Of a stretch of 46,936 nucleotides of DNA, positions 2,445-42,600 are shown in pieces. Numbering within the stretch: position 1 is the stretch's first letter; every line of letters starts with the position of its first letter. Under the pieces are notes generated by a model, which was not told the origin of the DNA, ran no database searches, and was given only the letters and a program-made list of their open reading frames with translations. This stretch comes from Pelomyxa schiedti (Eukaryota; Protista; Evosea): assembly GCA_020536535.1 (NCBI GenBank), contig JAHLWZ010000214.1, positions 1 through 46,936 of the forward strand, read 5' to 3'. The position numbers were made by a program, and so were the translations under genes.

Positions 2445-5400
2445 TTAGCTGATTATGCAGCCTGGTCTGGAAGGAGTAGTAAATGTTGGGAGTGGGAGTG
2501 GCGCCGTCGGGTCACCACCGTCATCACCACCATCAACAACAACGCCATCACCACCCACTGTGAATGGTTTGTGGCCCTGAATTCTCTGGAAGGCCGCACG
2601 CCTGCCCTCTGGGGTACCTAGTACTGGTCTAAGGAGGTTCCTAAGTTCGCGCTTTAGGGCACCCCTGGTGTATGGTATTGAACTGTCTGTGCAGCACAAG
2701 TCCTGATTTGCGCAGTAATGGAAAATGAGAGCCTTTGCATTAACGAGTTAGGATTTTTTGTGCCTTGCGGAAATAAGAGAAGATAACCTGTTTTCTGTCC
2801 ACAAACAAAGCGGGGTGGCAGAATACTCTGGCTTGACCGTTGGTTGTTCTCCTTAGGTAACTCTGAACACTCCCTATGTGATGAATTGGGTGTCCATAAG
2901 GCTGGCAAGGATAGGACACGCTATTAACTGCATCTTTGTGGATAAATATCTGGTTTGGGATTATTGAATTGATACGGTGGAGATACGAACCTGAAGCATA
3001 TTTCCGGGTGGGTGATCCTCTGAGCCGGTGGGTGAGAACCCAACATAAGAGGCCGATTTGTAATGAGAAGTTGGAAGGTTGTACTTTGCGCCGATGTCCA
3101 CTGCTCGTTGTATTACATCTTCAAGCTCATGTCCTGTATTTCAGTCAAATTAATTTGGGTGCATGACATGGCATTTACCAGAAAATCCACAAGCCTTAAG
3201 TAAATCAGTGAGTAGCGTCAACCACTGTACGTCTCCACATGAATAGCCTTGCATGAAACAAGAAAGAGGCTGCATCTCACTTGCACTTGCAAAAAGCCCA
3301 TTGCTTACGGATATGACCAATGCCCGAAATCTTGGATCATGATCCTAGCTCACCGTATTCCTTGTAAGAGCAAATGGAGAAAACAGTGTCCACTTACATT
3401 ACCAACCATAGACTTGAAATCTTTCATAAGCAATCCCATTGTTGGCTTTTCATCAAAGGCGGCCTGCAGTAGCCTTTGGGAAATTCAGTATACAATCACA
3501 AAATGCGGTAAATAACCGGGGAAGTGGCGGGAAATCAGTTGGCAAGCCATATAATACAGCCGCTATTTCCGAATTCAATTCATAAAGTAAAGAGGCAAGG
3601 GAATACTTTTTAATGCCACATTACAATTATGTTATTATTTAATATATTGTGTTTTTTTACCGAATGGTAGAAGACAAAGTAATCTGAAAAATACTGCTGT
3701 TCTCTCTCCAACATGGAGCTGAAGCAGTAGGCACAAAACTGAGCATCCTTCGCCGGAAGAGTTGCTGTCAGAAGGTCAGCTGGATCACCCTGTATGTTCT
3801 CAGTTCAAATCCATGGATGTGAGAAGGAAGGGTTACACTCAATCCTATATATGACTGGCATGGAGCAGTCTTATTTATTCGGAAAACTACCCCATTCTTG
3901 GTGACCACAACAGATTTTCCTGTAACTGGTTTGGCAACAGCACTTGGGTCGTATGGTGCGTCAGGACCACTTACATTTTCCGGTGGCATGGCGGTTTCCC
4001 CCATTAAAAGGGCTACCGCTACATTGAGATCTCCATGGCTTGAGAAGAGGATGTGTAAAATATCTGATTGATGGGCATGGGTATTAGTTACCTCTCGTCC
4101 ATGGCAGTCTTAAGGGCCGATAGTTCAGTTTTTGGGAAAATATGCATGAGACGCCGCATATCCGGGTGAACATCTTCTCCTGCAGCGGTGGTGAGTGGGA
4201 AGACTGGCACATAAAGGAAACCAACCGGTAATTGGAGTGGGGGGAGCATCCTCTGGAAACAAATTTGTTGGTCTTGAGACTCCCAACAATACTGCAACAG
4301 CTTGTTCCACATTCCCTCCAGAGGATACTAATGTCTCCTTCAGAAGAGCATCATCAAGATGCGGTAACATCTCTCGTAACTATTTTGTTGGTGAGTATTG
4401 TAGAGACAATAGGCAAGCTACAGTAATAAGATCGAGGGTCATAGTTCCTAAGGAGTCATGATCAGACGGCTTTGACGGGCAGTGATCAGTGTGCTCTTGG
4501 AACTCACATTACAGATTAGGGAAAGAAGATAAAGACTATTTAATTTTAATGGATATTGGGCTCCTGCTACCGTTGAGTGGGGGATACTTTGGTAACAGAA
4601 TGGACAGCTATCGAAATCATCTTCTACCACAGGGCGCTTTGCTGGGGTCTTTATAGGCGTTGAAACAGGGGGTCTACAGGTCGGTACGTGGGCAAAAAGC
4701 TTGTGTAATACTTTTATGTTAGCTCTTAGGACTAGATTGTTTTTGGGATACCTCTTCTATCCCAAAGACCTTTCCACAAGACGGGCATGGCTCAGAAGCT
4801 ACGGTAGTTGTAGTGGTGACAACACTGAACGGTGGGGTGACAGGTCTTGTGGTAGTTGCAGATGGAGGTGTTTTTGGCCTTGTGGTTGATAGTGGAGGTG
4901 GTGTTACAGGCCGAGTGGTGGTTACTGGTGTTGGTTTGGGTTTAGGCTCAGATTCCACAAGACATGCATTGACGTGATCTTCAATCTTGCCAAAAAGGTG
5001 TTAGAATAAGCTGTTTGGCACAAGAACAAGTGTTACCATGGTTGTGGGAAATTGTTTGGAGCATATGGGACAAGTTTCAAGAGGTGGTCTTGGGGGTGCA
5101 GTTGAATGTACAGGTTCAACACGAGGACGTTTTGATGGAATGGTACCATCACATGTGGCAGCATGTCTGCCGATCTAGGAAGCCATGTCAAGGTGGTTAC
5201 AGTTTCATACAAAAAACCTCTTGGATGGGAAATGGTTGTCTACAAAGAGGACACTCTACGCTTTCTTCAACACGACTTAGGATTGATTTAGCAGGGGAAC
5301 AAAAATGATTGAAAATATACCTTGGTTTTGGGTCGACATTAGGTCGCGTTGGTGTTGAGACAACAGGAACTGAAGGAGTTCGAGTAGAAGGAGACGCCGG

Positions 5401-6865
5401 AGTTGATTTTGCTGCTGGAGAGGACACCATCGTAAGTGCAGAACTTGTAGGTGAAAGCTTTGCCATTATTGATTGTATCATTTCTTGTTGTTGCCTGATT
5501 AGCTCTTCCATTGAAGGTGCCTTGGCTGGTGGTGAAGATGTTGAAGTTGAGGAGCTAACTGGCTTCGTCGGAGTTGCTATTGCAGCTGATGAACTAGACG
5601 GCACAGGTACTGTTGGAACTGGTGTCACTGGTGCAGCAGCTGTGGCAGACGGAACGTTCTTTTGCGTTGGTGTGAAAACAGAGTCCAGGAAATCCAGAGA
5701 TAGGGTAGAAGACGCCAACTTTGGAGTTTCCATTGGCTGAGGAGAGATATCCAATGAAACTGGTGTGATGACTTCAGAGGTTGATATTGGGGACACCAGT
5801 GGCAGGATAGGAGGTACTGAGGGAGCGGGAGGGGAATCGAACATCAAGTCAATTAAGTTGTTTGATTGCGATTTCGATACCGGTACCGATGTTGGCAAAA
5901 ACGGGTTCGGTCCTTGCAGAGTTGTGGGTGATGCCGGCACTAAAGTTGTTGATCCTGTTGGTGCTGATAATTGGGGTGCTGAAAAGGGGGATGTTNNNNN
6001 NNNNNNNNNNNNNNNNNNNNNNNNNNNNNNNNNNNNNNNNNNNNNNNNNNNNNNNNNNNNNNNNNNNNNNNNNNNNNNNNNNNNNNNNNNNNNNNCGATA
6101 CCGGTACCGATGTTGGCAAAAACGGGTTCGGTCCTTGCAGAGTTGTGGGTGATGCCGGCACTAAAGTTGTTGATCCTGTTGGTGCTGATAATTGGGGTGC
6201 TGAAAAGGGGGATGTTAATAGCACCTGTTGTTGGACAAGTGGCGGGGCTGTTGGTAATAACGCGACAGGTGTTGACCTTGTGTTTGGTGGTTGCATAGCT
6301 GGTAGAGGAGGTGCTGTTGGTGAAACTGTTTGTGTCACAACAAACAGTGGTGCCGTTGGTTGTAACGGTAGTGGCGATGGCGATGGTGATGGTAGTGGTG
6401 GTGCTGTTGGAAACATGAACGCGGATTCACCTGGTGGCGGTGTCATCAACGTACTAGTAGCAGGAGAAGTGGTGGCGGTGATGATGGTGATGCCTGTGGG
6501 TACAACCTGCGGGGGTGGTGAGGGTAGCCCCCCCGCTCCCATAATGTGCATGATGGTGTTGGTGGCCGCAGGAGTGGGTGACATGAACGCCGATTCTACA
6601 TGGTCTGCTGAAAATTGAGGAGGTGTGGGTGCTGGTGAGGGCGTGATGGTGTTGGTGGTGGTGGTGGTGGTAGGGGGCTGTTGTGTCTGTGATGGCGTAC
6701 TACTAGTCGGTGAAAGAAATGTGGATGCTACTACAACAGGTACACTTGCTGCTGTGGCACACAAGTACCATATATGTTACGACTGAGGGAATACAACTTT
6801 TAAATAATATGTGTCGCGTTTTTTTTTCCCATGAATGTGCATGGTGAGTTACCTTGCGTTGCCAT
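2445..6865 (-). CDS. Multi-exon ubiquitin-binding protein: Pro/Thr-rich N-terminus, 4 UBZ-type zinc fingers, 2 CUE domains, unassigned C-terminal globular domain
   Basis: Spliced by eye through GT-AG introns. Fingers: CPLCRQPFPIQEIGRHAATC, CPICSKQFPTTMIEDHVNAC, CPSCGKVFGIEELFAHVPTC, CPFCYQSIPHSTFQEHTDHC. CUEs: LREMLPHLDDALLKETLVSSGGNVEQAVAVLL and LMHIFPKTELSALKTAMDESHGDLNVAVALL. The start (MATQ, 6865) is tentative. Spans gap 5996-6095. Confidence 0.75.
5875..6216. other. Scaffold gap (100 N) flanked by a 121-nt direct duplication; assembly artefact
   Basis: 5875-5995 is repeated at 6096-6216. The same pattern occurs at gaps 24830-24929, 30978-31077, 39977-40076 and 46072-46171. Confidence 0.9.
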
Positions 6866-7686: not shown

Positions 7687-8349
7687 GCTTTGTTTGTATT
7701 ATTTCTCTACACCCAATGGCGTTTGTATGTTTTTGTTTGTTGTACTTCTCAGACAACACAACCCCGCTACGTTTGAAGTAATGTCGCGTTTCCAGGAATC
7801 TGTCAGGCAAGGAGGAACAGCAATCCCATCACTACTAGCTTTGACATGTCCAAGGTGCAAGAACTATTGGTGACTCCTACTCACCCTCAGGAGTGGATCA
7901 CGATTGTGAGCCTCAGTCTTGGGGTTGTGATCTCGATGCAAATCACGGTTTGGAAATAGAACAAAATTTAAAAATGTAGCATGAGTTTTTTTCTTTTTCC
8001 AGAGGGCCCGATGTATTGAAGACATCGCAGAGACCCTGATGTGTTACGTGCACTGATAAAGGCTAGAAAAAAAAAATTTTTTTTGACGTCGCGCGGGTGC
8101 TACCTACCAGGTTGGTTGTGCCCCAAACGACAACAAACGCCAACCATTTGACACCATTCCCCTGCTCCTTCGTTCTTTCTCCAACCCGACGTCGTTTAGT
8201 TTGTTTTTTTTATTATTTTTCTTTACCCCCCCTTTGGTGGCCTGTCTCGTTGCGTATGTGTCCCGAGATCTGTTGTCTTGTTGTTATTACTGCGGATAGA
8301 TAACCTGACACCGACGCACAGGATAACCTTTGACAAATAGACCGCTACA

Positions 8350-16842
<8,493 letters not shown>

Positions 16843-18334: not shown

Positions 18335-19588
18335 TCACTCAAATGAAAGGTGGGATGTGATCCTCCTAATTTTGAGGAGCTTCTTCTTCCTCCTGTTAAA
18401 TGTGAGGTTGAGAACTACAGTACGAGAGAAGGGCTCCATCATCTGTATCCTCTTCTTGGTGACTTTGAAAAGGAAACCAGACCCAGCCACAAACTGATTC
18501 AACTTTGCAGGGCCAGGACTCCCAACCAACAATGGACGTGTGGGGCAGTTGCAATCCCATATTTCGTAATTGTATGAACTGGCTGAGTCAACACAGAAGA
18601 GGGAGCTGTTCAACTGTGATAGGTGTGACATCAGGCCCTCTTTACTGCAGAAAGTAAGTTGCGTCACATCTCCAGTGCCCAAATCATACTGGTGAATGAC
18701 TCCTTGGAGCCCCTGAAGAGACCCAACAATGACAACATAATCACCATTTCGTTTTCTCATCAACAGTGAATGGGTGTAATCACGAAAATCAAAAGAAGCT
18801 AAGCACAGTGAATTGATGCAATGCCTTTCATGTGTTTTTGCCACGTCGATGATCTGGAATGACACTGATGTTGGACTTCTGTAAGTGTGCTGAACAACAA
18901 GCATTTCGTCGGGAAGTGACTTGTTGAAAAGGAGGTGAGTTGAAACATTTGTCTGTGACTTTTTTGGCCAAAAACCAGAAATAACTGTGATTTTGGCCTC
19001 GTCAGGATCCAGAATCGGCCTGATCACCAACGCACTTGGGTCATCATCAGGAGAAATCAACACCCACCACTTTCCATTGAAAGCAAAACAACCAGATGCA
19101 CTCGGTGTTGCAAGTGGCCAGCTGCGGGCCTCGTTGTAGCTCCCATAATGGGGGCTGGTGCCACTGCCACTGGTTGCTTCCTCAACTCTGAATCGCCTCT
19201 CCCAGTCACCTGTTCTTGTGTTTCTGTGCCCCTCCTGCACCACGCAGTGCGCAGAGCTCACCCATAATTTGCGGGTGTTGTTGTTCAACAACCCTTTTAC
19301 GTCGTAGATGCCCTTCAGCAGTGGGCAAACTGCGATCAAAACAGACATCAACTGATCCGTGGTGGTGGTTACGAGGAAGCTGAACCACGTCCGGGCGCCA
19401 GGGCCCACTACGGCCACGTCCCATAGTGCCCGGAGCATCTGGGAGTGCTGGCCGAGTGTCCTCGCCGCGCTGTGGCCTCCGCACCGTGCGTTGGTAGCAG
19501 TGGCCAACGCCAAAATCTGCTCACGAACATTGACTACGGGTTTCCAAACAACTTCCCCCGCTCCCGGTTCTTCATCGTCACTGATCAT
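18335..19588 (-). CDS. HxRCG-box family protein (intronless)
   Basis: 417-aa ORF with REQILALATATNARCGGHSAARTL..LRALWD, NGKWWV, IIDVAKT, YEIWDC, MMEPFSRTVVL. Confidence 0.85.
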   Translation of the reverse strand: MISDDEEPGAGEVVWKPVVNVREQILALATATNARCGGHSAARTLGQHSQMLRALWDVAVVGPGARTWFSFLVTTTTDQLMSVLIAVCPLLKGIYDVKGLLNNNTRKLWVSSAHCVVQEGHRNTRTGDWERRFRVEEATSGSGTSPHYGSYNEARSWPLATPSASGCFAFNGKWWVLISPDDDPSALVIRPILDPDEAKITVISGFWPKKSQTNVSTHLLFNKSLPDEMLVVQHTYRSPTSVSFQIIDVAKTHERHCINSLCLASFDFRDYTHSLLMRKRNGDYVVIVGSLQGLQGVIHQYDLGTGDVTQLTFCSKEGLMSHLSQLNSSLFCVDSASSYNYEIWDCNCPTRPLLVGSPGPAKLNQFVAGSGFLFKVTKKRIQMMEPFSRTVVLNLTFNRRKKKLLKIRRITSHLSFE

Positions 19589-19779
19589 AGGAAAATCGTT
19601 CTCGAAAAGCTCATTATAGTAACAACACTACTACCCATCGGCAATGGACTCGTTTCAGTCTGGTGTTTATGTTTTTCGATGTTATTCTTATCTTCTTGTC
19701 AAGTGGTGAAGCAGAGTCTTGATCACTGCAAGAACGCCATGGGCCGTGATGAATTATCAACTCTCAGGGCAATGTAGTG

Positions 19780-20217: not shown

Positions 20218-23200
20218 ATGAAAGTCGGGTATATCTTCTACCGATGTGGCAGGGATGACACGCTAGCAAAAGCTGCTCAGCATATTCTCACCGAGTACAC
20301 TCCTTTCCTTTTTTCTGTCTATTTCTAAGAAGCTTTACCACAGTGGCCCCAAGCACCTGAAAGGAGTGGTGCTCATGTTGCACACTGTTGAGCAATCCTT
20401 TACAAGTGACATTCTGCTCAAATTGCTGGACCCATCACCGATTGGTGCCGAACCTCCTCCACATGCCCCCCTTCTCATGGTCAACCTCAGTGCACAATGT
20501 GAAGAAGAAGTGACAGGACGAAAGCTACTTGGCACAGTTAGGTGGATTTCGATTGCTCTTGAGGTCTGTGAGCTTCCCCCCAACTTTTTTCTAAGCACTT
20601 ACCTTGCAGTTTTGTGCATTCGAGATTGTGAAGTGGACACCAGCAAAAAGTGGGGCAAACTTAGGTTCACTGTTATCGTTTATAAAAGAAGCCTCGAATC
20701 AACCAGCCAACCTGTATGCAGTCCCGCAGATGCACAAGACGCGCCTGGGCACAACAAGAGTCCCAAGGCCATTTTTCACTGCACCAGTGATTATGAAAGT
20801 CAACTCTGCCAGTGTCACAGAAGCTCACATGATCATGAAGCTAGTTTACGATTATAGTGGACACTTTCCAGGACTCACAGTGGAAATGGCCCTGAGGATG
20901 TGGGTGAGAGCAAAGAACTGGGCTGCTGTTGGTGTTGTGTGCCGTGCTCACTCTTTCACCCAGTTTGAAGCCATTGACCTTTCCCACTTGTCATTGGAAT
21001 CAGTTCCAGAAGAGTTGAGGGGATTGTCATTCAAGACACTCAACCTGTCAGACAACAAGATCACCAAGATTCCCAAATGGTTGGCTGAAATGCCCAATGT
21101 GATTTGGGGGGAAGGTCCACGTAGTATGATTCTCCATGAAGTGGAGAAAAGGAGAAATTGTGTGAAGATAGACACACACAAACTTGTGTTTGTTGGTGAT
21201 GGTGGTGCTGGGAAAACAACACTGTTGAAGTGCATGATGAAGAATCTGAAAAAATTGAGAACAAAGCACGTTCCCACAGGCCTTTCTGTGTATTACAATG
21301 TGAAGTTCAGAGACAAGACCAAGAGTTGGACTGTGTGGGACCTCGGTGTGTTGAAATCCTTTTCCATTCCAAAACACTCACGCAAATTACAGGAGGGGAA
21401 TCTCAGGAACTGTTTCACCCATGGTTCTTCCTCAGCAAATCAACATTCATCGTTGTCTTTCATTTTCTTGCATTGAGCACCGAAAAATTTCGGGAGCCCC
21501 GGTTGAATTATTGGTTGAATGAACTCTCAGTTGCAAGAAGCAGGGGTGACAAAACAAAGAGAACCATCATCCCTGTTGGAACTCACGTTACTGAGGAAAT
21601 ACTCAATTCAGTCAATTTTCATCTGGAGAGAATCTTCCAGCATGAAAGCATCCCGGTGGCATTCTTTTTGCAACTCAGTGATGGACAAGGGTGGAAGTGC
21701 TCAGGTGTACCAATTCAGAAGCAGCATAGTCCCAAAGGTGTGAATATGCTTTTGTCTCACCTGGAAACTGATTTGGCTGATTGTTCTGTTCCCCAAAGCT
21801 GGGTTGTTCTCAACAAGAAACTCACAAAATCAAGAGAGAAAGGGGGGATTTCCACGCTATCCTGGACACAGTTTGTTGAGCTAGCCTCCAGTTGTGGTGT
21901 TGCAACAACAGAGGAGTGTGCCCCCTTCTTGGCCGAAATTGGTACCATCATTCACTTCAGGTATCCCTTTTGGTTGCTGTCTCCCAACCACCCTGGTACA
22001 GCTGCAACACCAGGTCTTCCTGAGTTGGTCATTGTGGAGCCTCATTCCTTTTTGGTTCGTCTCCTTTCTGACCTCCGTTCGCGTTCCCAGCCAAATCTAG
22101 TAACCTCAAAGCCTGTGTTCAACTCTCAAACAGAACCAGCTCTGAAAACGATTATGTATGAATTCGGAGTCATCATTGAACATCATCTCCTTTCAGATTA
22201 TGTTCCATCAGCAGAGAAATATCTTTCCTTTCTCAACCCTCCCCACTCTACAGACAAGTTGTACAAATATTTCCATTCGTTCTGGCAGGCGCCAACAAGC
22301 CCCTCCATCACTTATCGCCTCAATGGGGTAGTGATCCAGTTCGCCCTGTTCCCGGAGGACCTATTCCTCAAGCTCATTTCGAGAGTTGCAAATGTTTACC
22401 CTGGTCAATGGGACCTACAGTTCTGGTCAAGGAGTGTTGTTTTCTTTTCAAACTCTGACCTTGGCGCACTTTTGTTCCTTACATGCAACGATGAAAGACT
22501 TACAATTTGCCTGAGATCAACAGACAGGGATGACTGGAGTGCACTCCAACGGAATGTGTGGACCTCCATTATAAGCACTATTCACAGTTTCTTTGATTTT
22601 ATGCATTGTCAATATGAGGAAACCTCGCAATTGTTTGATTGGGCTGCAATTGCAAAGGAACGCTCGCCTTGTCCTCATTGCTTGCTCAAAGGTCTGACTT
22701 CACAAGATTCCTGGCTCAACCCTTCCAGGTCAATTTTCCTACCACCCACTGCAGAGTGGAAAAGAAATGACATCCTTGGAGTCTTGAAATCCGGAGGACG
22801 AGAAATGCTCTGTGGCACACTGAAAATTCCCATTCTGAGCATTGCACCTGATCTTATACCGCGATTCGAATCTTGTTCCGGTACCGAACCGGTTACCACA
22901 GTCACCACACAACTCAGTGACATTCTTGGCCAAAGAGTCGAACAACGCACTACCTTGGAGGATCTGCTCACCACACTCATTGAAAAAGGGAATGGAACTA
23001 CGTCTGTTCTGGACCAAGTGATTCCGAATGGCTTGCGGTTGAAGATACTCAGGGATGTTGCCCAAGGTCTCGGGGACCTTCACAGACGAGACCCACCCAT
23101 CATTCACGGTAGAATTTCACCAGGTATCGGTCTCAAAATTCTTTATCTGACTCACAAACATGAAAGCTTACATCCTTGTTCTGTCTCTGGATGATTCTGG

Positions 23201-23829
23201 AACTGGCCCCAGGGCAAAGGTTCCAATCCCGAGCTCTTTTATTCTCTCACCAATCTCCAGATCATGGACTCTGACAGAGCGTGCACTGTCTTCTCTCACC
23301 GGACAAGAATTCCTGAATCACTTTCACGCGATGAGATGAAATTCGTTGCACCAGAGGTTCTTTCACACTCGTTCTTTGACACAAAGGCCGATGTTTGGAG
23401 TTTTGGTATATATCTCCCAACGTTTTCATCCACTCTGCAACTCACTATTTTCAATATATCCGGATTTTTCTTCCAGGAATGACTTCTTTGCTGACACTGA
23501 ACCCACTCAATCAACCATTCACACACATCACATCAAACCGCAAATATAGGTGCACTGACTACAACAGCCCCGCAACCGGCACCGCCACCACATCCCACAA
23601 TCGCAACAAATACCGGCTTGGACTTAACCAATATACTGTGGGCAGAGACCTCCTCAAGGGTGCCATCACTCCATTCCCTCCTTCCACAGCAGATAGCCGG
23701 ACCCACAATCTGGAGATTCACGACCGACTGAGGATGCAGATCGCGTCCCTATGTCTGGGCAGTAACCCAGACACCAGGCCCTCAATGGATAACATTGTAA
23801 AAATCTGGGACTACTTCCAGCCACCATGA
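20218..23829 (+). CDS. ROCO-family protein (short LRR, Roc GTPase, COR, truncated pseudokinase)
   Basis: LRRs IDLSHLSLESVP and LNLSDNKITKIP. Roc KLVFVGDGGAGKTTLL and WDLGG. COR VPQSWV, FLAEIGTIIHF, FPEDLFLKLI, CPHCL. Kinase C-lobe LRDVAQGLGDLH, HGRISP, APE, KADVWSFG, RPSM. 5' exons and start are uncertain. Confidence 0.8.
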
Positions 23830-23980: not shown

Positions 23981-24630
23981 CTAGTATCTGCGCTTAGAGT
24001 GCCGGCTTTGAGGGGACAGTGAAGTGTCACGGTGTGGCCTGTGGCTTGATGATGACGACGTTGTTGTGTTTGATACTTCGGATGATGCACCTCCTCCGCG
24101 GCCGTGGCGTCTGGTAGTAGAGGCACCGGCCTGGAACGCCCAGTCAACGTAGAGCGGCTGGCCCATGAACATAGTCCCGTTCATTACCTGTTGGGTAAAT
24201 GTTATTATTATTGGTATTACTGTTGGTGTTATTATTGCTTATGTGGCTTGTGCGGTTTGGTTTGTGGGTTGGTGTTGGATTTGCGGGAGTAGAAACCCTA
24301 ATGGCGCTCTCGGCTTCCTTCTTTGATTCATATTCCACCAACGCGTAGCCTTTTACAAAACCGGTGCGCCTGTCAAGAGGAAGAGTCAGGTTGCGAACTT
24401 CACCAAACTCCCCGAATTTGTCATGAAGATCATCCTCTGCTGCTTCCTTTTTTGTGGAGAGAAATAGTATTGAATTAAGAATTGTTAAATAAGCAGCGTA
24501 AGAGAAGTAGGGTGTACCTCGTTTACATTCGTTACAAACACCAACCATCCTTCGATTGACCTCCCTGGTCCACTGTCCCCCGATTGTTCAATTTCTTCAA
24601 AGTCCCCACCTTGGATACAAGTTAAAACAA

Positions 24631-24707
<77 letters not shown>

Positions 24708-25102
24708 ACAACAGCAACAACAACAACAACAACAAACAAAAAAGGGAAACAATAGGGTAAATAGGGTATATAGCATACCCTTTCCGGTGTATCTTCCATC
24801 GAGGTCGTTGCCCTCCACAATTCCCCTGCNNNNNNNNNNNNNNNNNNNNNNNNNNNNNNNNNNNNNNNNNNNNNNNNNNNNNNNNNNNNNNNNNNNNNNN
24901 NNNNNNNNNNNNNNNNNNNNNNNNNNNNNCAACAGCAACAACAACAACAACAACAAACAAAAAAGGGAAACAATAGGGTAAATAGGGTATATAGCATACC
25001 CTTTCCGGTGTATCTTCCATCGAGGTCGTTGCCCTCCACAATTCCCCTGCCTCTCTTTTTCATTCTGACCTCGGGCGCCACGTGCTCGTCCGTCGCTGCC
25101 AT
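23981..25102 (-). CDS. RBM8A: RNA-binding protein 8A / Y14, exon junction complex core
   Basis: KKRGRG...[18 protein letters not shown]|[39 protein letters not shown]...LYVDWAF. Three introns. Spans gap 24830-24929. Confidence 0.95.
24627..24735. repeat. (CAACAG)n/(CAA)n microsatellite inside RBM8A intron 1
   Basis: Direct reading. The polyQ/polyC/polyL ORFs in the track are just translations of this repeat. Confidence 0.9.
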
Positions 25103-25486
25103 CCCCACTCGTCGCAGTCACTCAGTGAAAAAAAATGTTGCTTGTGCTTTCCGGTTGTCAAAATCGCAAACACAAAGTGTGACCACGAGGTGTCGCACGC
25201 CCCTTGCTTGTTGCTCACTAAGAAAGAAGGGAAAAAATGATTTTTCCTCTCTCAGTCTTGTCCAGACTCCGATCTGCCTGAGCTGCCCCGTCATCTCGCC
25301 GCCTCGAGGCGGCGAGAGGGTTGTTGTCTCTCGGAGGGGAACAAGGACAAGATCCTGCCTCGTTCGGTGATTGCTGATTAGAACTAACAGATACCAGCGT
25401 TTTTTGTGGGGTACGACCGGGGTTTCATTGTGGTTGTTTGCGGGTAGTGCCAAGCGTTGCGTGTGTGCGGAGATCGAGATCTATCG
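25103..25486. promoter_or_regulatory. Putative bidirectional promoter between RBM8A and SMC3, with a central 24-bp perfect palindrome
   Basis: Head-to-head ATGs at 25102 (-) and 25487 (+). TCTCGCCGCCTCGAGGCGGCGAGA at 25294-25317. Confidence 0.6.
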
Positions 25487-28400: not shown

Positions 28401-30537
28401 AAATTGCTGGTCAAGCAAAAGAACTGGTGGAAGAGCAGCAGAAGGAACATGCATTGGTGGCAGGTGAGTTCTCTTCTTACGCAACATTTTTTAACATTTG
28501 AATGAGATATGGAACTAAAGCTGAACACTGTACTTGGAGAAATACAGAAGAAGGAAGCTGAACTGCAAAGAACGCTTGATGCATACCAGCGATTACTTGT
28601 TGACCAGGCATCACAAACAAAGGATGTTCAATCTCGTGCACAAATTCTTGACCAAAAGGTAAGTGCCTTCTTAATTATCTTTAACTTACTTTTATTTCTG
28701 CAGCAACTTGTGGTGTCACAAAACCAGGCAACCATTGCACAAATCAAGTCAGTGATTTCTTCCCTTGAAACTGAGGTTGTTTCCTTTACTTTTCATATCT
28801 TGTAATAACCCTTTCCATGTACGGTAAAAAAGATGAGTTCTCCTCTTCAATCTCAGCTCAGTGCAATGGAAGAAGAAGAGTTGCAGAAACTTCAGGCCCA
28901 GACCACAGAAGGGAAGTCAAAGCTTATCTCACTTGCTCCTGAACGGACAAAGGTCTGCAACTGCCTCCTGTTTACACACGCAAATAATCTCCAATAGCTT
29001 GAGAGTGAAATGATTGCTCTTCGTACTCTGCTTGATAATAACCTTCTGAAGCGCCAGCAAGACCAAAGGCAACAAAGAGTCAATCTTATCATAAGTGACA
29101 CAGAAGGAGCCTTACAGTCCTCCATCTCAGATCTTGAGAGTGCAACCGCCGCTCTTGAAACAGCAAACAAGCAACGTGATAGTAAGCAGAAACAAGTCAA
29201 CTATCAAAGCCTGACTAGGACTTGTAGGTTTGGTCGAAAAAATAGAGGGGAATTTGAAGAAGACACAAGAAATCAAGGAGCACACAGAAGAGCTGAAGCA
29301 GGAAGAGAAAAGGCACCAGGTACCAAAATACATCGTTTCCAAACCACAGTGATTTGACTCCAACACAGGCAATACTTTCTGAAGAGGCTCGGAAAACGAC
29401 AAAGCTTCTGACTAGGCACTCGATCCTTCAGCAAAAGAAAGAAGAAGGTGCCCGGAAAATACGAGGTAAACGAGGATTGTTCTCTGTTCCTATGACCTGA
29501 GAACCTCTAGAACTGGGCTCTGTTCCTGGGGATGCTGCACAGTATGCGGCTAACAGTAGGACAGAATTAATGAATCTTCTTCAAACAACGAACACAAAAC
29601 TCGCGTCATTCAGTCATGTAAACAAGAAAGCAAGGGACCAATATGTCATGTTCACAAAGCGTCAAGAGGATTTACAGGCAAGACGGAAGGAACTCGATGA
29701 AGGGGCCATTGTACGTTATTACTGCTTTTTTTAACTGTTTACTCAACATACCGTATCAGGCAATCAGAGATTTGATTGACCAACTGGATCAAAAGAAAGA
29801 TGAGGCCATTGAGCGAACTTTCAAGGGAGTCGCAAAGTTCTTCTTGGATGTATTTCAGCTCCTTGTTCCAGGCGGGAAAGCATCTTTGGTCATGCAAAGA
29901 AAGGATCTTCCCAATACTGAGGATTCATCATTGTCCTCCCAATCTCAGGGAGAAGCATCCCAAGCATCCCAGACACAATCCGGCAGACCCACTGCAAAGG
30001 GAAAGATGAGTGAGTATATTGGTGTAGGAATAAAGGTGATACCTACGTAACAAATGCGTAAGTCTAACAGTTTGTCTTCAGGTTTCATTTCCAGGAAGCA
30101 GTGAGGCCATTAACATGCAGCAGCTATCCGGAGGCCAGAAAACCGTTGTAGCACTTGCCCTTATCTTTGCAATTCAGGTATTGGTCTTCTCTTTATATTC
30201 TGCTTATTCATGGCTCACAGAGGACAGACCCGGCCCCCTTTTACCTTTTTGACGAAGTTGACTCATTCCTCGATGAAACTTACCACACCCGAGTGGCCGG
30301 TGTGCATCTTCTTTACCGGTTCGAATTTCCCTTCTTACTGATTTTCCAACAGACATGATCAAGGAGCAAGCAAAGCAAGCGCAGTTCATTGTCACATCGT
30401 ATCACAACGAACTGGTTGATGGAGCGGACAAGTGGTACCTTGCCCAGGTCCACAACAAAGCCAGCACAGTCACCGTTGTTGACAAAGCCACCGCGTTGCA
30501 GGTGGTCCAAGCTCGGAACGTTCACCCTGTGAAGTAA
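25487..30537 (+). CDS. SMC3: Cohesin subunit SMC3 (>25 short introns)
   Basis: [15 protein letters not shown]; Walker [10 protein letters not shown]; [16 protein letters not shown]; [11 protein letters not shown] (acetyl-lysine pair); SNPYYIV; [15 protein letters not shown]; hinge [11 protein letters not shown] and [11 protein letters not shown]; [11 protein letters not shown]; signature QLSGGQKT; [10 protein letters not shown]. Confidence 0.96.
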
Positions 30538-30841: not shown

Positions 30842-33494
30842 ATGACCGAAGGTCTTCCGCAACAACGACAAGCACACATCGACTGGGCCGTCCACGTGGC
30901 CGGTGTTGTGTGGCAGCACGTCGTGGTGCCCCACCTCGTGCCCCCACCATTCGGCGCCGTGACGCCGGACCAGGCCANNNNNNNNNNNNNNNNNNNNNNN
31001 NNNNNNNNNNNNNNNNNNNNNNNNNNNNNNNNNNNNNNNNNNNNNNNNNNNNNNNNNNNNNNNNNNNNNNNNNNNNNCCGCAACAACGACAAGCACACAT
31101 CGACTGGGCCGTCCACGTGGCCGGTGTTGTGTGGCAGCACGTCGTGGTGCCCCACCTCGTGCCCCCACCATTCGGCGCCGTGACGCCGGACCAGGCCAGG
31201 GCAGATCGCGCCGAGGCGTGCAGGGATCTGGTGAGGGCGGGGGAGGGGGTGTGGCCGCTGGCGGGGCTCGCGTGCAAGCTGGCGGTGGGCGTGGCGTCGC
31301 GGCCGTGGTACTCGTTGCCTGGGCCGGGGTGCGCGGGGGTGGCCCACAGCGGGTGGTACCACGCGCTCGTGGTGGCCGCGAGCGCGACGGGGGACCCGCG
31401 GTCGAGGTGCGTGTCGTGGCTGGTGAGGAATATCGACCGCGGGGCAACGAGGTATGGTTTGTGTGAGTGCTTTGCGTTTTGTTTTCGTTTTTTTTTTTTT
31501 TTTTTGGAGTTGTGGGGGAATAAATACTGGTGATAGAGTTATATAATATTAGGAATATTTTTTAATAAGTGAAAAAGAAATTTCTAATGCACAAAATAAA
31601 TAAGCAAAAATTAATTCTTCATGACTTTCTTTGGCAGGGGGTCACTGAAGAAGAACAGAAAGCCAAAGGAGTCAATGGCAGTGATGTTTGGTCTGTGCAT
31701 TGGCGGCCACTTGTCCGCTGCGAAGTCTTTCTTTGAAAGCGGATCTGGTGTGGGTGTCAGCATTGACTCCACTGGACTTGTGTGGGACAAGAGGCCAGAC
31801 AGTGAACACATGCAGGATGCGAGAGCCGGGAACTTTGGCGAGTTCGGTCTTCTACCAAGAATCTGTGAAGCAGGACACCTAGAAATGCTGCAGTGGGTCA
31901 CAGGCGCATTTGGTATCAAAGAGTCTTGGCAGATGTTTGCGCCCCTCCGTGCCGCACTAAGAGGAGGTAGCCTGGAAATTACCAAATGGATTCTGGCCAA
32001 ATTCGTGGGACTGGAACAAAAGTTGCATCAGAGGGAATTCTCAAGGATTGCCTTGGACCTTGCCATGGCATGCGCTTCTGGGAAAGATCCTCACTTGACC
32101 AGGTGGTTAATGGAGCAGTTCTCGTTTCTCAGTGAGAATGACTCATCAGTCTCGGCAGTTTGCGATATTCTTCTGAACCAGGTCCTTTGCAACAAAGGCA
32201 GCACCTTGGAGCTATGCCAATGGATGACGAACCACCTCAGTTTGTATTCATCGCGACTCTATTTTCACGTTACTCTCATCAACACTGAAATTAGGCACTG
32301 GGCCACCACAAATTTCCCAAAGAGACTGATCTATGGCAACCTGAGAACTTTCTGCCGTGTGGGAACAGAGGTGCAGTTTGCAGAATGGCTTGTTTCTGAG
32401 GGGAAGGCCACACCAACAACACAGGATTTCGTGGCTTCGTGCTGCAACCAGTATGGAAACCTGGAACTCACCAAGTGGGCCTCATCCAAAGTTGTACTCT
32501 CCCCTGACGACCTGAAACAGGGACTTCTCTCAGCATTGTCCCACAGCAACATCAGAATCGCCAACTGGTTGGAGCAAACTTATTCAGTGATGAAAATGAT
32601 CAACTCTCAGGGTTCAGGTGCTGTTTCCAAGGCATTTGTAGAAATACTCAAAAGCAAGAACAGTGGTGAGGATACTGTGGATGGAATTGAGTGGTTTGTT
32701 GGTCGACTGACTGCTGCTGTTGAGCTTGACAAGTACACTGCATTGGAGCAGCTTGATCAAGCAGCAACAAAAATGCGCCCAAAACTCACCCTCTACATCA
32801 TCAAGTCATTTCGCATCCTACTCTCAATATGTGCCAGTTCTGACACAACAACTAAAGGAGGCCTCTTGGCGAAGTTGCTGAAGTGTGTTGCACAGTGGAG
32901 CCTGAGTGCTGTGAAAGAGCTCACCTCTCTGTTGCCTTTCTCTGTTGAGGATGTTGCACAGGCACTGAGTTCAGACAGTGTCGTGTTCTTGTGCTCTGAT
33001 GCGGTGAGGTGGCTTGTGGAGACATACCACCTCACATCAAGTCACATCAAGGCGAACCACAATGTTGTGCTTTATCAGTTGATTCTTTCAAACAAGAAGG
33101 GCTGTGCCGAATGGCTCATTGATTCTTTTGGAATTTGCTTGGATGACGTGTGTTCTGAACAAACAATTCTTGTCTAAAAAAACCGAACCCCTAGGTTGTG
33201 GACATGTTCATGAAATGGCTGAAAGTAGACCCAATAATAAAGCTGCATGTGTCAACATGGAGGATGATTATCAGCAAGTTCCCAGAGATGGACTGTGACA
33301 CTGCTTGGAAGATAATGCGGCGTCTGGCAAACATGGCGAGCATTGCCGAATACACACTTAAGTGGTATCATGTGGAAGAAAACAGTGACACAGAACAGAC
33401 ACTCCTGCACAACCTCTCAAAGTGTTACTTAGCAAAGACTTCCAACGAGTTTCAACTGTGGAAAGCTGACAAAACCGACAGGCACTTGGGGTAA
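30842..33494 (+). CDS. Degenerate ankyrin-like helical-repeat protein, probably a lineage-expanded family
   Basis: Exon 1 MTEGLPQQRQAHIDWAVHVAGVVWQHVVVP... (spans gap), introns ~31452-31638 and ~33148-33194. Repeated GHLEMLQW, GSLEITKWIL, GNLELTKW and SNIRIANWL units. Confidence 0.7.
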
Positions 33495-33791: not shown

Positions 33792-36700
33792 ATGGCCACG
33801 ACGGTGCGCGCGCATAAAAACACATTAACGGGGGTTGTTGGCATTATGACGAATTGAATTTGACACAACACAGCAGCAAGGACAACCACAAACTGGCAAG
33901 ATTAAGACACGGGGGTTGGTTCTCACCAGGGAAGATGCCAGATCTGTAGTACCCCCTCCGTCGATGCCTGTTTTGGCGGCGTCCCCTGCTGTCGCCTCTC
34001 AATCTGGTATTTCCTCCTTTTTTTTTTTTTTTTGTAAACAGCATTCTTTTCTTCTTTTCTTAATCGTTTTAAGCAACTTATGCAAGCAACGATAAAAGAG
34101 ATTTCTTCTTTGTGATCGACAACTTTGTCAAAAGAGCGGGGTCAACTGAGTCTGCCAACATGTTTGTTTCAATTTCAAATTGCAAAAGGTCCTGTTAATT
34201 ACCGCACATGCACAGAGAATGGAAGTTTCGAAGTAACATTTGGACTTATGACTGTGTCAAATGGTTTTGGATTTATTTCTCCTGCTGGTGTTAAAGTTTG
34301 TTTTTACAGGCGATGCAAAATCGTGCTGGCGAATCCCTCTGCTCACCGGCAGGCAACTCAAGCTTCTGTTTACTTGCAGATAAAGAATGGTGGAGATTTT
34401 GTCCCCCCATGGACTTTGGATGCCAGTCTAACTGTGGAACTTGTCAACCACCTCAATTTCCGAAAATCCATTGTAAAAGGTCAGATACCCCTGAAAATTT
34501 GTTCTTCCAGTTAATGGTATTTCTTCTTGGATCCTTGCAGAGTGTCATCATGTGTTCAACCAAGATGAGTGGATTTTGAATTGGGGATTTTCTGATTTTG
34601 TATCCATTTCTCATCTTTTTGATCCTGAGAGGGGCTTTCTTGATGGAAGTGGTTCCATTGTATGGAAGATTCACCATGTGGAGCAAATACTGTCTCCTCC
34701 TCATGGTAATTTTTTCACATCCTGATTAAATGACTGTTGATCTTGAGCAAGTCATTTCTGTCAAGCTGTTCACGGAAGAGGACATGTATATCAACAATGC
34801 TGGGCCTGACATTGTCTTATATCCTGGAAAGATACCAGCTTTTTCAATGGTGAACAATTTTTCCGGTCGTGATCTACAGGTAATGAGGGGAGATTGGAGC
34901 AATAGGTTTCTGATCCCCTTTCCAGGTCCGCGTTGCAGAGCATCTTGCTATACAACCGCACTTGATGCAACTGTGGATGTTCAGTGACACCGAGCCCGCG
35001 AATCAGAGAAGACAAGAACCCCAGGAAAGTAAAAGAGGACCGGAAAGACCCACAATTCTTGTGTCTGAGACCACTCAAAATTACCGGTACAGTGCATCTA
35101 TAAATAAAAGTGAGATCAAGTTCTGATTTCCCGTTCAGTATTGGCAGCAAGTACCTCCATCTCTTTGTCGAAATATCTGATCTTCCAATGTCGTGCCCCA
35201 CAGATGTGCGTAATGTAATTACGGGAAAATAACACCTAACAGTAATCTAAAGACCATTGCCTTCCCAGAGACTGACTCTTTCATTAAACTGTACTTCAAG
35301 TTCTTCAATGTCTCACAGAATAAGCTCTTGTATGGACAACCTCAAAGGCAAGACATCTCATCTTCCTATCAGATATGTTGGGTCATTGTACTGTTATCCA
35401 ACACAGTCATTAGCCCAAATCGTACCGACACTAAGACTTCTTGCGTCACTTGACTCAAAGGAAGAACTTCAGCTTTTCAAGGTGCGCACCTATTTGGTTG
35501 GTGTGTTCTCACAATTTTCAAAGGAATCTCCAAGTTTCCAAGTTGACCAACTTCCAACAAGCACTCCCTTATCCTCACTCAGTTCAGGAGGTTGTTTGTT
35601 TCCCTCTTACAACTTGCCAGGACTCATTATGTACGCAGATGTTGTTGTTTTCCAACCTAGCAGAACCAAAATGGCTTGTTCCAACTGGTACACTCGCGCA
35701 TCACAGTGTGTAGTTGTTGTATTTTACCTCGCAGAATATTACACCACCTGCCAACAAGTGGGGCATCCAGCAGCAACTCCAACTACCACTACCACATCCA
35801 CAAGCTCTTCGAGCACAACAGCTGCATCTTCTGGATTTCTTGAAAGCCGCGAAGGATTGAAACTTGTGCTAACACTCAAAACTGCCAAGACTTTCACGTA
35901 TGTCGTGGAAAAATTATGCAGAAGGCTGCGAGGAGTAGTGATTGACCCCACAACCGTATCTATCCGCTGTATACCATTTGGGCTTCCAATGTAATACTTA
36001 AACACACGCTTTAGCGATTCCTTACATACTCTGTTCAGAGCGAGAAGTCAAGGTGTACAAGACATACTGAAATTACTTGAACAAAATGTGCTATTTTTCG
36101 ATGTACAAAATACTTCTATTTCCGATTTTGTCGAGGCATACAACAATGTTTTCCACGTTATCCCCTGTTGAAAATCTTACAATACCTTCAGCAAAGCCAA
36201 GTTCCATACTTTGCTCTTGGAGGGGCGGATATGGACCTTATCTGCAACGTTTGCAGAAAGTATCTCACTGATCCTGTACTTCACAGCACATGTGGCGAGA
36301 TGTTGTGCGCTGAATGTGCTGCGGTACGTGAGTTTTCATGCACCAACCTTTTTACATGAGCACAGGTTGGAAAATGCCCAGGGTGTAGTGGTACAATTAG
36401 CCCCCGTACTATCAGTCCAGCGGTTCCTACTGTAATTCGCAACCGATTGTTGTCAGCCAATGTTGTATGCACTGTATGCTGCAAAGTGACGCAAAAGAAG
36501 AATAGTGCTTCACACCTCCAGTCTTGCAAGTGCGGTGTGTTCCGCCTTCCTTCTCAACCTGTTCTGAACTTCACCAGTTTGTGCCGACTGCGGAATGAAA
36601 TACCGACCGCAATACTTCAAAGAGCATACATCAATATGTGTTGCTCAGATGACTAAGTGTGGGATCTGTGGTGTCAGTGCCAAACGGGGTCACATTGTGA

Positions 36701-37307
36701 CAACCCATTTGTTGATCTGCCCTTGCTGTGTGTACTATCTTTATACCTTTCATGAAGCACTCTCAAACTTTCTTTTAGCCTGTGTCCACGGCTGTGGCAA
36801 AATAGTTTGCACTCTTACTCAACCCTCGCATGACAAACAATGCCCAGCAAAGCAAATCAAGTGCCCGAAATGCGGACTTGTTGCCCAGCGCTCCGTAATT
36901 CAAGACCCAAGCCATTGCGCCCGTGTGTATCTAACCCGCCCAGTCACTCTCCTAACATATTCACAGCCTGCCCCAGGCAATGCGGTGTACAAGTTGCACA
37001 GGGGTGCTCCGAGGCGCACGACGCCCAATGCGGCGGAGTTACTGTGCCGTGCCCCGCGAGTGACGCCATGTGCCCGTGGCGTGGGCCGCGGTCCGGGCTC
37101 TCGCAGCACATTGGGAGCTGCGCTTTCATGCTGTGCCGGTCGGCACTGGTCAGGATGCTCCAGGAGAATGCCACGTCGACGGCTAGGCTCAACTCACTGG
37201 TGCAGAGCACTCGCCAGAGGGCCGCTGAGGTGGCTGTCCTCTGTGAAGCAGTTCAGGCAAAATGCACAACAGCCACAACTACTACTAGTACAAGTTCCTC
37301 CAGCTGA
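33792..37307 (+). CDS. MATH + USP7-like UBL1-3 + RING + TRAF-type zinc-finger protein (no USP catalytic domain)
   Basis: MATH: FFFVIDNF...ASVYLQ...LVNHLN...HVF...NWGFSDFVSISHLFDPERGFL. UBL-like segments: HVISVKLFTEED...MQLWMF; IKLYFKFFNVSQNKLLYVG...ADVVVFQ; LTLKTAKTFTYVVEKLCRRL. RING: CNVC...HSTCGEMLCAEC...CPGC. Several TRAF-like CxxxC...HxxxC fingers and a coiled coil. The start exon is tentative. Confidence 0.75.
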
Positions 37308-37517
37308 ACCATAAAGTACCGGCTTCTTCTTTCTCTGCGTTTGATATTCCTTTGCCTCTGGCAGGTCATAGAACCAACCTCTGTCTCCTCTGGTTGGAAA
37401 ATGTGCTTCTTGTGGTGTCGCGCACCACATCCATGCAACCGTTGTAGCGTCGTGTTCGCACAGATTCCGACATAATCAACAGCAAGTTTTTAGTTGAAAA
37501 GGTAAAAACCAGTATTT

Positions 37518-38814
37518 GATGGGGAAAGGGAAAAAGAAACGTGCGCCACCGCGCCCATCGTTCACGTGTTCTGGAGGCTACGTCACCCTGCGCGACCAGG
37601 TGCTGGCCCTGCTGGCCTCGTGCCACCCACGCTGCGGCGCGCGCAGCCCCGCGTCCCCGCTGGGCCGCGGCGTCATCAGGCCCATGGCCGAGTCCTGGCT
37701 CCGCGACACCGCCGTGTTCCACGCCCACGTCATCGGCGGCGCCCCCGTCGCCCTCGGGGTGTCCAGGGCCACGCTGGGCGTCACTGTGCCGCCCCACTCG
37801 GTCCAGTCGCTCGCCGGGCCAAAACACAGCTACATCGCCACGTGGGTGGACTCGAACCACTGCGTGACTCTCGGGAGAGAAGACGACTGCGGCGGGTCGC
37901 ACAGCCTGCCGTTTTGGGACTGGGTGTACGTCGACGCGAGGTCCGGCGCCCGCAAGGTACTGCCTCCGCCCCCCCCGGCCGATTACGTCGACGTGCCGTG
38001 GGACAGTGCCACTGGGATCAAGATATCCCAGCTGAGAGAAAGGTATCGCCCGAGAACGGCGGCGCTGCCTGCCAACGAGCGCTGGATGGTTGTCGGCCGC
38101 CCGCTGTGCGTGTTCAAGCTGGACGAGAACATGGCCCCGGTTGGGCCGCTGCTGCTGCGCGACGGCGGCGGCGACGAGGTGCTGTGGGGGTTTGACAGGT
38201 TTGTATCCCGGGACCTGCTGTCTGCCTACTTTGGGCTCGGTCCCACCTCCATCAAGCTCATCGATGTTGAGCGGTCTTTCGCCTCTGGCCAGCTGGTGGT
38301 TGTTGACTCTATCTCCCTGGGTACTGCACATATCACGCACATTACATGCTACTGGCCACAGAAACTCGTAGTTGGGATGCACAAGAAGAGTATTATTTCC
38401 ATCAACAGGTCTGGAGACAGACGCACTCTGTCACATGCACCCGGCCGAGTGTCATTCTTGGAGTCCAGCTTCTTTGTCCAGCAGTTTGACCACACCGAGC
38501 ACTATGACCTCTGGCAGTTCCTTGACGACTCTCCTGGGACTCTCCCAACCCACTGTTCCACGTGGAAGCCTGTGCCTGTGCTCCAGAACCTTGACCACAA
38601 TCAGAGCACTGGACGTCCGAAGTACAGGAATAATGACGTGGATGTGTGGTTCCCCCTTGCTGGTGACTTGGTCATTGCTTCAAAATATGAAAGACTGGCT
38701 GTTGTTGACCTTACGAGTGGCAGGACACTCATAGCCTTGACCTCAAACCCTGGATTCTCCTGGAATCCTTCTTACACCTTCTGTTGTGCACTGGGCAAAT
38801 TCACAACCTCATGA
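37518..38814 (+). CDS. HxRCG-box family protein (intronless)
   Basis: ORF with LRDQVLALLASCHPRCGARSPAS, LGVSRATLGV, ANERWMV, IDVERSFASG, YDLW, VVDLTSGRTLIAL. Very GC-rich 5' half. Confidence 0.85.
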
Positions 38815-39693: not shown

Positions 39694-42600
39694 ATGATTT
39701 ATCCACGCGGTGTTATTGATGCCAATATGGGGTTTGGAAATGTTAATAGCTCACAACAACAACAAACCTACACAAATAACAACAGCATCACAACACCTGA
39801 TTACTTCGCACTACTACACCAAGCACAACAGCAGCAACAACAACCACTGCCACTACCACTACCACCACAGCAGACATTCACAACACAGCCACAAGTGCTG
39901 GGGCTGATGGGTGTGAGTGGAATCGCTGAGCAACCGGACCAGACTTCACGCAAGCGCCCACGTCGCTTGTCTGAGCNNNNNNNNNNNNNNNNNNNNNNNN
40001 NNNNNNNNNNNNNNNNNNNNNNNNNNNNNNNNNNNNNNNNNNNNNNNNNNNNNNNNNNNNNNNNNNNNNNNNNNNNCCACTACCACCACAGCAGACATTC
40101 ACAACACAGCCACAAGTGCTGGGGCTGATGGGTGTGAGTGGAATCGCTGAGCAACCGGACCAGACTTCACGCAAGCGCCCACGTCGCTTGTCTGAGCCCT
40201 CAAACCCTGCCTTCAATGTCAGTCCAAATGCCCTTGCTGCACTGGGATTGACCGCGGCACAGCTTCAGCAGCCTTCACAGTCTCAGGTTCTGTCACAATC
40301 TCAGGGCGCTCCTCAGCCACCGCCACCGCTTCCTGTTGCCCTGGGATCGTCACCTTCACCGCCTGGGAATCCTACGGCAAACTTGACGTCAAGCTACTCC
40401 CCACCTTCTCAGCAGCTTTCTCCATTGCCTCAACTCAATCAACTGTTGATGGACATGCAAGTACAGTTTCAACAACAACCGCACCAGGAGCAGGCTCAGC
40501 AACAGCAACACACTGACCCTATGTCCACAGCTAACTTGTACCAGGCAACCTCTTCAACATTACCAGCGTTGCAACTTTCCTCAGGGCAGATACAGCAACT
40601 GCAAATGCAACTTCAAAATCCTTCCCTTTTACCACAATTTGCTCAATATTTGCAGGAGCAGCTAGTGAGTACAAAACTCTCTGTAAACTCGTCTCACTCA
40701 TTGTGTAATAGATTGCCACACCACAACACCATACCGTGCCTAACCAAAACCAAAACTCTCCGTCACCACCTGGTTCTTCACAAGTCGCCAATTCGTCATT
40801 ACAGACACAAAACCCAGCGTGGGGATCCCAATGGCAGTCACAACCAACATCACAACCCCTTTTAGGGAGCTCCCAATTCACAAAGCCTTCATCGTTTATT
40901 CCACAACCATCCAACCAAAATCTGCAGCCCCAAGGCAACCGGTCAGAACCAGCACTTAAAGCAGACCAACTCCCACCTCCCACTAGGTAAATCAATTTAC
41001 TAACTTAATACCTAAACTAACAACCAATCAATTTAGTAATGATATCGCCAACTCTGCAATGCATGCAGAGTCGCTCCAGGTACAACTTTTTCCATGTGCA
41101 AAATTGTTTGTAACTTTTTCCAGCTTTTAAATCACAACACCAAATTCTCTCTTTTCTCTGAGCAACTTCAGTTGCTGAGACAACAACAGCACGTAGCCGC
41201 ATCAAGTATCGCACAATCACCCTCGTTTTATCAGGCTACTCCCTCCACAGTACCACAAAGCCCCATTACACAACTGCTTCCCTCTTTTCATTCTACAACA
41301 CAAATGCCACCACCCTCACTTCCAGGGAACCAAGTCACCCCAGCGGATGCTAACCCTCTCCCACTTGGAATTTTCCCATCTACGTTGTATTCCTCTGGTT
41401 TCCCTCAAGGCTGACTTTTTTCCTTAAAGATACTCCCTGGATAAAAGTGGCACTTCAACTCCACAACTTAACCGATATAACAAAGAATTTGCCTCCCAGG
41501 TTTCCTCTTTGAGTATTTCCTTCTCTTACCTACTGTCAGATCTTAGCCACAACGTCTTCCAATTTGAAAGTATTTTCCTCGTGTCTAGAAAACTTGAGAC
41601 AAACACAACAACAAATTCTTGGAATGCAACTGCCCATTGAGTCCCCTGTAGCATTCCTTTTCTCCCTCCACAAGTGAATTCACTTAATATTTTCTATTGT
41701 TAGCAACTGGAAAACTTATCTCAGCAGCATCGTCAGCTCTTTAGTGCAATGGATAAGCAACACATCACACTTGTGCACTTATTTGATGAATGCATTTTAT
41801 CTCCAACCGATTTATATTCTTACAAAAAAATCTTACTTGTATGCATCCGTCAAGTTTTTTTTTGTCTCACTGCTGCCCAAAGCAAACCCAAAAACACATG
41901 AAACAACTGGAGCTATTTCAGAATGAACTGTCCCACTATATTAGTTCCGATTCATCGTTTTGGTTTGTTATTTTAGCACATGCATATGTGTCTTTACTAG
42001 TTTCTTCCCAGTCCTGCGGTACTCTTTCTCACTGAACAACCATTCCCGCGAACCATTGTAAAGGGTCAACTGGTTCCAATTGATGCCCAGTTACTACTGG
42101 CCTCCAGAGCCGATATACGGTATTACATCGTTTCTCAGAACCCCATTAAACTCTGGTTAAGGTCCATTGGAAGTGTGTCAGCAATTATTGTTCAATCACA
42201 GTCTTCCAAAAAACCTGGCAAGGGAATAACTACCTCTGTATCCCTGGAATGCAATCCTGAGCAAATCGATAACGAGGGGAAGGTGCCACTTCAATAATAA
42301 TTTAAAAAAGCCTTCTCAATCTAAAAAAACAGGTCCGTGTCAATGTTAAGTTTATGGTTGGCACCAATAAAAAACCTGTAACTCTGAAACTCCATGTCAA
42401 CATAAAGCACACTCCACTGAGATCTCAAAAAACTCCATTTGCGGTATTCTTTTCATGTACTTTTTTGAACTTACCCATATTCACCCTCTAGCAACCAGAA
42501 CTGCGAGCTATAGAGAGCAATCATTCACGCCCATTTATTATAACAACTAATTCCATTCAATGGCGGGACTCAGAAGGAATGCTTCTTCGCACGGATACCT

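Follow-up and report, generated by a model that had tools for sequence, protein, structure and literature searches.

What kind of activity would a eukaryotic cell fuse to an array of ubiquitin-binding modules? The question is raised by a minus-strand gene of the amoeba Pelomyxa schiedti on contig JAHLWZ010000214.1 (GenBank assembly GCA_020536535.1), whose first 46,936 nucleotides, hereafter the window, were analysed here as eukaryotic DNA with short introns. The initial annotation had proposed four UBZ fingers and two CUE domains joined to a C-terminal domain reminiscent of the ADP-ribosyltransferase (ART)/toxin fold. Our results suggest that this C-terminal domain probably represents an undescribed, non-canonical ART-fold family, and we see about an even chance that the spliced protein docks on ubiquitylated proteins, cleaves NAD+ and moves a single ADP-ribose to an acceptor.

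The gene structure comes from RNA, in the form of Logan contigs from three runs of one sample in one study. In these contigs 15 introns of 41-68 nt are spliced out, each with GT..AG ends when read on the minus strand and each located between 2733 and 5320, and none of the 15 joints is present in the DNA run X4. The introns first placed by manual splicing are thereby confirmed, and all the peptides quoted at that stage are found in the minus-strand spliced frame, which is open from 5874 down to a stop at 2447-2445. The gene extends beyond the 2600..5260 given in the initial annotation, to an inferred start near 6865 (Table 1). From 5039 onward the frame agrees over 647 aa, with 0 mismatches, with the database protein P0001, named ‘E3 ubiquitin-protein ligase DTX3L [Pelomyxa schiedti]’, whose model begins wrongly in the middle of finger 2, since according to the RNA the frame runs on upstream. 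One observation weighs against a single protein: no single RNA contig joins the CUE part to the C-terminal domain, as one contig stops at approximately 3864 and the next begins at 3886. This unspanned interval, together with the many relatives that have no recognisable partners, would suit a C-terminal domain encoded by a separate gene, the fusion being a splicing artefact. Yet the gap lies within one open exon (3837-4038) whose frame has no stop, and the same domain order is found in the paralog P0002 (1,217 aa, comparable to the ~1,118 aa of the window protein) and in the transcript-derived Mastigella protein P0229, with five fingers, a CUE domain and the C-terminal domain. The open frame and these two proteins support the fusion, and a separate gene appears highly improbable; the Pelomyxa paralogs P0002 and P0003 are known from protein matches alone.

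Upstream of the C-terminal domain, the four fingers and two CUE domains are likely to form six ubiquitin-binding modules. Both CUE domains are recognised by Pfam PF02845 (E 2.4e-12, 46.7 bits against a cut-off of 21.1, in two stretches), while the UBZ assignment of the fingers goes no further than their spacing and weak RAD18 matches. All four share the spacing C-x2-C-x11-H-x3-C, which equals that of RAD18, and the resemblance to RAD18 is weak for finger 4 (E 0.46) and for P0229 (E 0.031); every Pfam UBZ model stayed below its cut-off on the window protein. Residues of the ubiquitin-binding helix are scattered, with the Asp in finger 4, the Ala in finger 1, the terminal Leu in finger 2 and none in finger 3, and the full RAD18-type helix motif, or the DxHxAxCL motif described for UBZ in an excerpt of PMC4267625, is present in none of the four. 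A phase-0 intron interrupts each finger at an identical place, 12 residues from the first Cys (4479-5253), which points to the duplication of one intron-bearing module.

The C-terminal domain exists but is larger than the approximately 270 aa first proposed, reaching about 330 aa. No Pfam family was assigned to it, nor any NCBIfam family in the eight proteins scanned against that library; a profile search of PDB sequences at E<=10 gave no match, and the best feature score in the ESM Atlas, 0.85, was to unrelated short proteins. Within the family, an alignment of 130 domains revealed a dense set of near-invariant residues, namely Tyr338, His339, Tyr341, Tyr348, Glu349, Arg370, Asp396, Glu418, Phe425, Gly428, Gly494, Gln498, Tyr511, Gly517, Gln537, Arg539, Pro544 and Arg575. 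Glu418 is predicted to fall within a loop, and the viral protein of locus L001 lacks it. On strand 5, 180 of 186 domains have Q-x-R, and no conserved acid occurs there among the domains aligned. The LQIFI and QARV segments singled out at first sight map to strands 3 and 5 and are conserved, and the SVS segment, taken for an STS-like motif, does lie on strand 2 as I-S-V-S, although S-x-S is conserved in part only.

Is this an ART? In one structural comparison with a predicted model, every row with at least 84 aligned residues was an ART fold (RES, DarT, diphtheria toxin, cholera toxin, Tpt1, DUF952 and PARP types), and His339, on the first core strand, would occupy the position of the His or Arg that characterises strand 1 of the superfamily, a register read from the starts of the structural ranges assuming no gap. 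In a Foldseek search against PDB, neither model gave a match at E<=0.001. It is improbable that the likeness is a superficial arrangement of strands in an unrelated enzyme of ubiquitin or DNA-damage signalling: the agreement extends over seven ART types, the one invariant His coincides with the strand-1 position, something not required of a likeness by chance, and three different ADP-ribose-reading domains are found among the partners. As to the known clades, the criteria set out in excerpts of PMC7955679 (which for the H-Y-[EDQ] clade include a strand-5 Glu, Asp or Gln) comprise three triads, none of which describes the domain, because its motif I is H-S-Y (Tyr in 127/130) and its clade-diagnostic strand-2 residue is Ser or Cys. 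The H-Y-[EDQ] clade of PARP, diphtheria toxin and DarT would combine an H-x-[ST] motif I with a strand-2 Tyr; in the R-S-E clade of the cholera toxin type, strand 1 would carry Arg, where the domain has His, and strand 5 would carry Glu, so that only the S-x-S motif agrees in part; and the H-H-h clade of Tpt1 has a second His on strand 2, where columns 405-409 contain none. RES (PF08808), characterised by a strand-1 Arg and an R-E-S motif, has no Pfam match, was not recovered by hhalign with a five-sequence profile and offers parallels of spacing only; DarT (PF14487) was likewise not recovered by hhalign against one and five sequences, and the catalytic Glu of its Q-A-E is replaced. Membership in both was rejected on these hhalign results, profiles of 1-5 sequences being weak evidence on remote kinship. 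A Deltex/DTX3L E3 ligase was rejected as well, there being no RING or DTC domain. By the features tested, the domain is therefore not a PARP, ARTC, Tpt1, RES, DarT or Deltex member, although an ART-like mode of action is predicted for it; the resemblance first proposed holds in part, for the strand-1 His and the predicted fold, but not for the triads of any named clade, nor is it recovered by Foldseek at the above threshold or by hhalign against DarT and RES.

How, then, might such a centre work? Under mono-ADP-ribosylation, the fingers and CUE domains would provide avid binding to ubiquitin chains, His339 would hold NAD+ as the strand-1 residue of ARTs does, and strand 5 would offer Gln537 and Arg539 in place of the catalytic Glu, a replacement that would make polymer synthesis less likely and favour transfer of single units through a non-canonical chemistry. 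In sister subfamilies, WWE or PBZ would take the place of these modules and guide the protein to poly(ADP-ribose) (PAR). This reading was adopted because Glu-less ART-fold enzymes are known: in excerpts of PMC6436930 and PMC11535050, MbcT and NatT are NAD+ phosphorylases of this fold without the Glu, their arginines are essential and those of NatT coordinate a phosphate, and Tpt1 modifies 5'-phosphates (excerpt of PMC8120803). The partners FHA_2, PBZ and RAD18-like fingers may point to a DNA-damage or stress setting.

A strand 5 without an acid would also suit an ART-like fold that transfers nothing to a macromolecule, either an NAD+ hydrolase with Gln537 as the catalytic residue or a reader or eraser of ADP-ribose or ADP-ribose-ubiquitin. 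Gln-type NADases exist, TNT being an example. Gln is permitted at strand 5 in the H-Y-[EDQ] clade (excerpt of PMC7955679), the structural alignments end at offsets spread around Gln537 and Arg539 alike, and partners reading ubiquitin and PAR would fit an eraser equally to a writer. The distance of +5 from Arg539 to the next short helix equals that from the catalytic Glu in PARP and diphtheria toxin and would slightly favour Arg over Gln at the catalytic position; moreover, unregulated NADase activity fused to docking modules would be less economical, and the density of invariant polar residues speaks against a dead pseudoenzyme. Overall, an activity without macromolecular transfer seems rather unlikely, if worth keeping in mind.

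The boldest form of the transfer reading is an undescribed ART clade of ancient eukaryotic origin, built around an H-S-R centre in which the invariant Arg370 and Arg539 would replace the Glu and hold a phosphate acceptor. The targets would be phosphorylated DNA or RNA ends, phosphoproteins or inorganic phosphate, as with Tpt1 and the RES phosphorylases; interchangeable readers would steer the enzyme to ubiquitylated or PARylated sites; and the clade would have been lost from model organisms, giant viruses having captured the domain without its readers. Taken jointly, these propositions are doubtful.

The partner domains of the family bear on all of these readings. Among 158 relatives scanned, 41 had a Pfam match at E<=0.001, of which 20 were of the ubiquitin-reader type (CUE, UBA, DMA or RanBP-type finger) and 15 were ADP-ribose readers (WWE in 10, PBZ in four and DTC in one); FHA_2 also occurs in three CUE proteins, and other domains in six relatives. 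Three unrelated domain types that read ADP-ribose (excerpts of PMC4756826 and PMC12687431) thus recur as partners. In the tree, CUE-type and WWE/PBZ-type members occupy separate parts with few label changes, which indicates a handful of fusions and not 35 independent ones. Two relatives, P0099 and P0103, contain segments like a diverged WWE below Pfam detection, and fusions to PAR readers may be undercounted.

The family comprises 310 clusters at 50% identity (E<=0.001) in a search of 1.84 billion representatives. Among the 150 of 310 matches listed, to which two word searches added more, the named members belong to Pelomyxa, Mastigella, Mylnosiga, Salpingoeca, Entosiphon, Lacrimia, Bodo, Neobodo and Polykrikos, that is, Archamoebae, choanoflagellates, Euglenozoa and one dinoflagellate, along with giant viruses; this range is a lower bound because most matches are nameless. 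A giant-virus bin carries an intronless member, and neither a ubiquitin gene nor a DarT gene was found in bin G001. The three viral scans returned one and the same locus, a fold search matched proteins of Hokovirus and Mimivirus LCMiAC02 (E 3e-7 and 2e-6), and eight proteins that we grouped as virus-like form a single branch with support 100 in a FastTree tree subject to composition bias. In pattern scans, which are insensitive, no prokaryotic member appeared among 56 + 11 candidates in genome contigs and no family member in phages or plasmids. Of the two sources of homologs that the initial annotation had in mind, giant viruses were thus found, but intracellular bacteria were not, within the reach of these scans. 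For the 44 metagenome loci, the open reading frames (ORFs) of 11 were inspected, and those with recognisable neighbours looked eukaryotic by eye. The virus-like member P0219 also contains, as a fusion, a PF10544 ‘anti-repressor’ domain, and in L001 a short ORF (1709-1930) resembling the N-terminus of P0219 lies upstream of the family gene (2734-3921).

Compared with known systems, the RES toxins (ParT, MbcT, NatT and P. putida RES) have Arg on strand 1 where the window domain has His, and the latter is about twice their size, with large helical inserts, shows no profile similarity to them and belongs to a eukaryotic family without an antitoxin. DarT gave the longest structural alignments (134-155 residues) and shares the strand-1 His; in contrast, strand 5 is [QM]-A-E in five of five DarT sequences and Q-A-R here, so that the catalytic Glu is replaced, there is no profile similarity, and DarT is part of a bacterial toxin-antitoxin system. 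The PARPs (H-Y-E, with WWE- or UIM-bearing mono-ARTs) are, like the window protein, eukaryotic, with a strand-1 His and a catalytic domain C-terminal to ubiquitin or PAR readers. Unlike Tpt1/KptA, the window domain has no strand-2 His, no recognised RNA lobe and no sequence link to that family. As for DTX3L, the absence of both RING and DTC makes the name of P0001 a misannotation; a Deltex C-terminal domain does occur in one distant relative, P0125, and is a possible origin of the name given to P0001 and P0003.

Full-text searches of the literature showed no description of the family, the ART surveys of Aravind 2012/2015 and the supplements of PMC12522546, which could name it, being outside that scope. 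Eukaryotic ART-fold families are few, the table in PMC7955679 giving the PARP, ARTC, Tpt1, NEURL4, LRRC9 and TASOR types. If our reading is correct, a centre that is strictly conserved yet matches none of the ART clades would carry out a new NAD+ chemistry across several protist supergroups and giant viruses, and the alternating reader fusions would mean that microbial eukaryotes own enzymes for the cross-talk between ubiquitin and ADP-ribose, which an excerpt of PMC12687431 describes as studied so far almost exclusively in mammals. Compact members without introns make testing cheap.

Table 1. Features of the minus-strand gene and its domains (window positions)
Feature	Position	Strand	Remark
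Whole gene	2445..6865	-	~1,118 aa assuming that the first intron runs from 6852 to 6752 or 6749; 5' end inferred
N-terminal arm, Pro/Ser/Thr-rich	5321..6865	-	P 20%, S 15%, T 15%, ~413 aa; RNA contigs cover parts
Run of N	5996..6095	.	Exact 121-bp duplicate on flanks; X4 DNA contig joins 5874 to 6096
CCHC finger 1, UBZ-type spacing	5151..5253	-	Phase-0 intron splits finger
CCHC finger 2	4962..5072	-	Spliced frame; RNA
Intron	4986-5036	-	One of 15 RNA-confirmed introns
CCHC finger 3	4676..4787	-	Spliced frame
CCHC finger 4	4479..4606	-	Asp two residues past His, as in RAD18 finger
CUE domain 1	4275..4442	-	Pfam PF02845, best stretch P0001 148-181
CUE domain 2	3996..4174	-	Second stretch of PF02845, with a weak UBA_8 match at 221-247; boundaries by eye
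Conserved C-terminal domain	2574..3914	-	P0001 272-605; predicted decorated ART-like fold
Strand 1, F-Y-H-S-Y	3603..3672	-	His339 in 129/130
P-R motif, strand 1-2 loop	3473..3521	-	Arg370 in 129/130
D-H (396-397), strand 2 I-S-V-S (406-409), Glu418, F-x-x-G-Y (425-429)	3243..3344	-	Glu418 in 124/130
Strand 3 G-x-x-L-Q-I-F, strand 4 Y-x-[SAC]-x-P-x-G	2893..3005	-	Gly494, Gln498 invariant (strand 3); Tyr511, Gly517 (strand 4)
Strand 5 G-Q-A-R, then Pro544	2812..2838	-	Gln537 129/130; Arg539, Pro544 130/130

The N-terminal arm of the protein is likely disordered, and the run of N within it is an assembly artefact. Further runs at ~24700-24900, 30960-31060, 39900-40000 and 46300 have apparently duplicated flanks, the run in the gene being the one that was checked. 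Between 6187 and 6636, an X2 RNA contig and the window disagree at 11 places; the DNA run X4 shares many of these differences, which probably reflect a second allele or strain.

Elsewhere in the window, several genes were recognised by eye. ORF pieces at 8341-16842 (+) contain the chromodomains and SNF2 helicase of a CHD-type chromatin remodeller, and those at 20267-23829 (+), with LRR, GTPase-like and kinase-like parts, suggest a ROCO protein. An RBM8A/Y14-like RRM gene lies at 24144-25117 (-), an SMC3-like piece at 29622-30050 (+) and a TRAF-type zinc-finger gene at 36568-37314 (-). Long open frames at 3-881, 874-2418 and 18335-19627 (all -) and at 37498-38814 (+) have a similar N-terminal segment and, judged by eye, form an expanded lineage-specific family.
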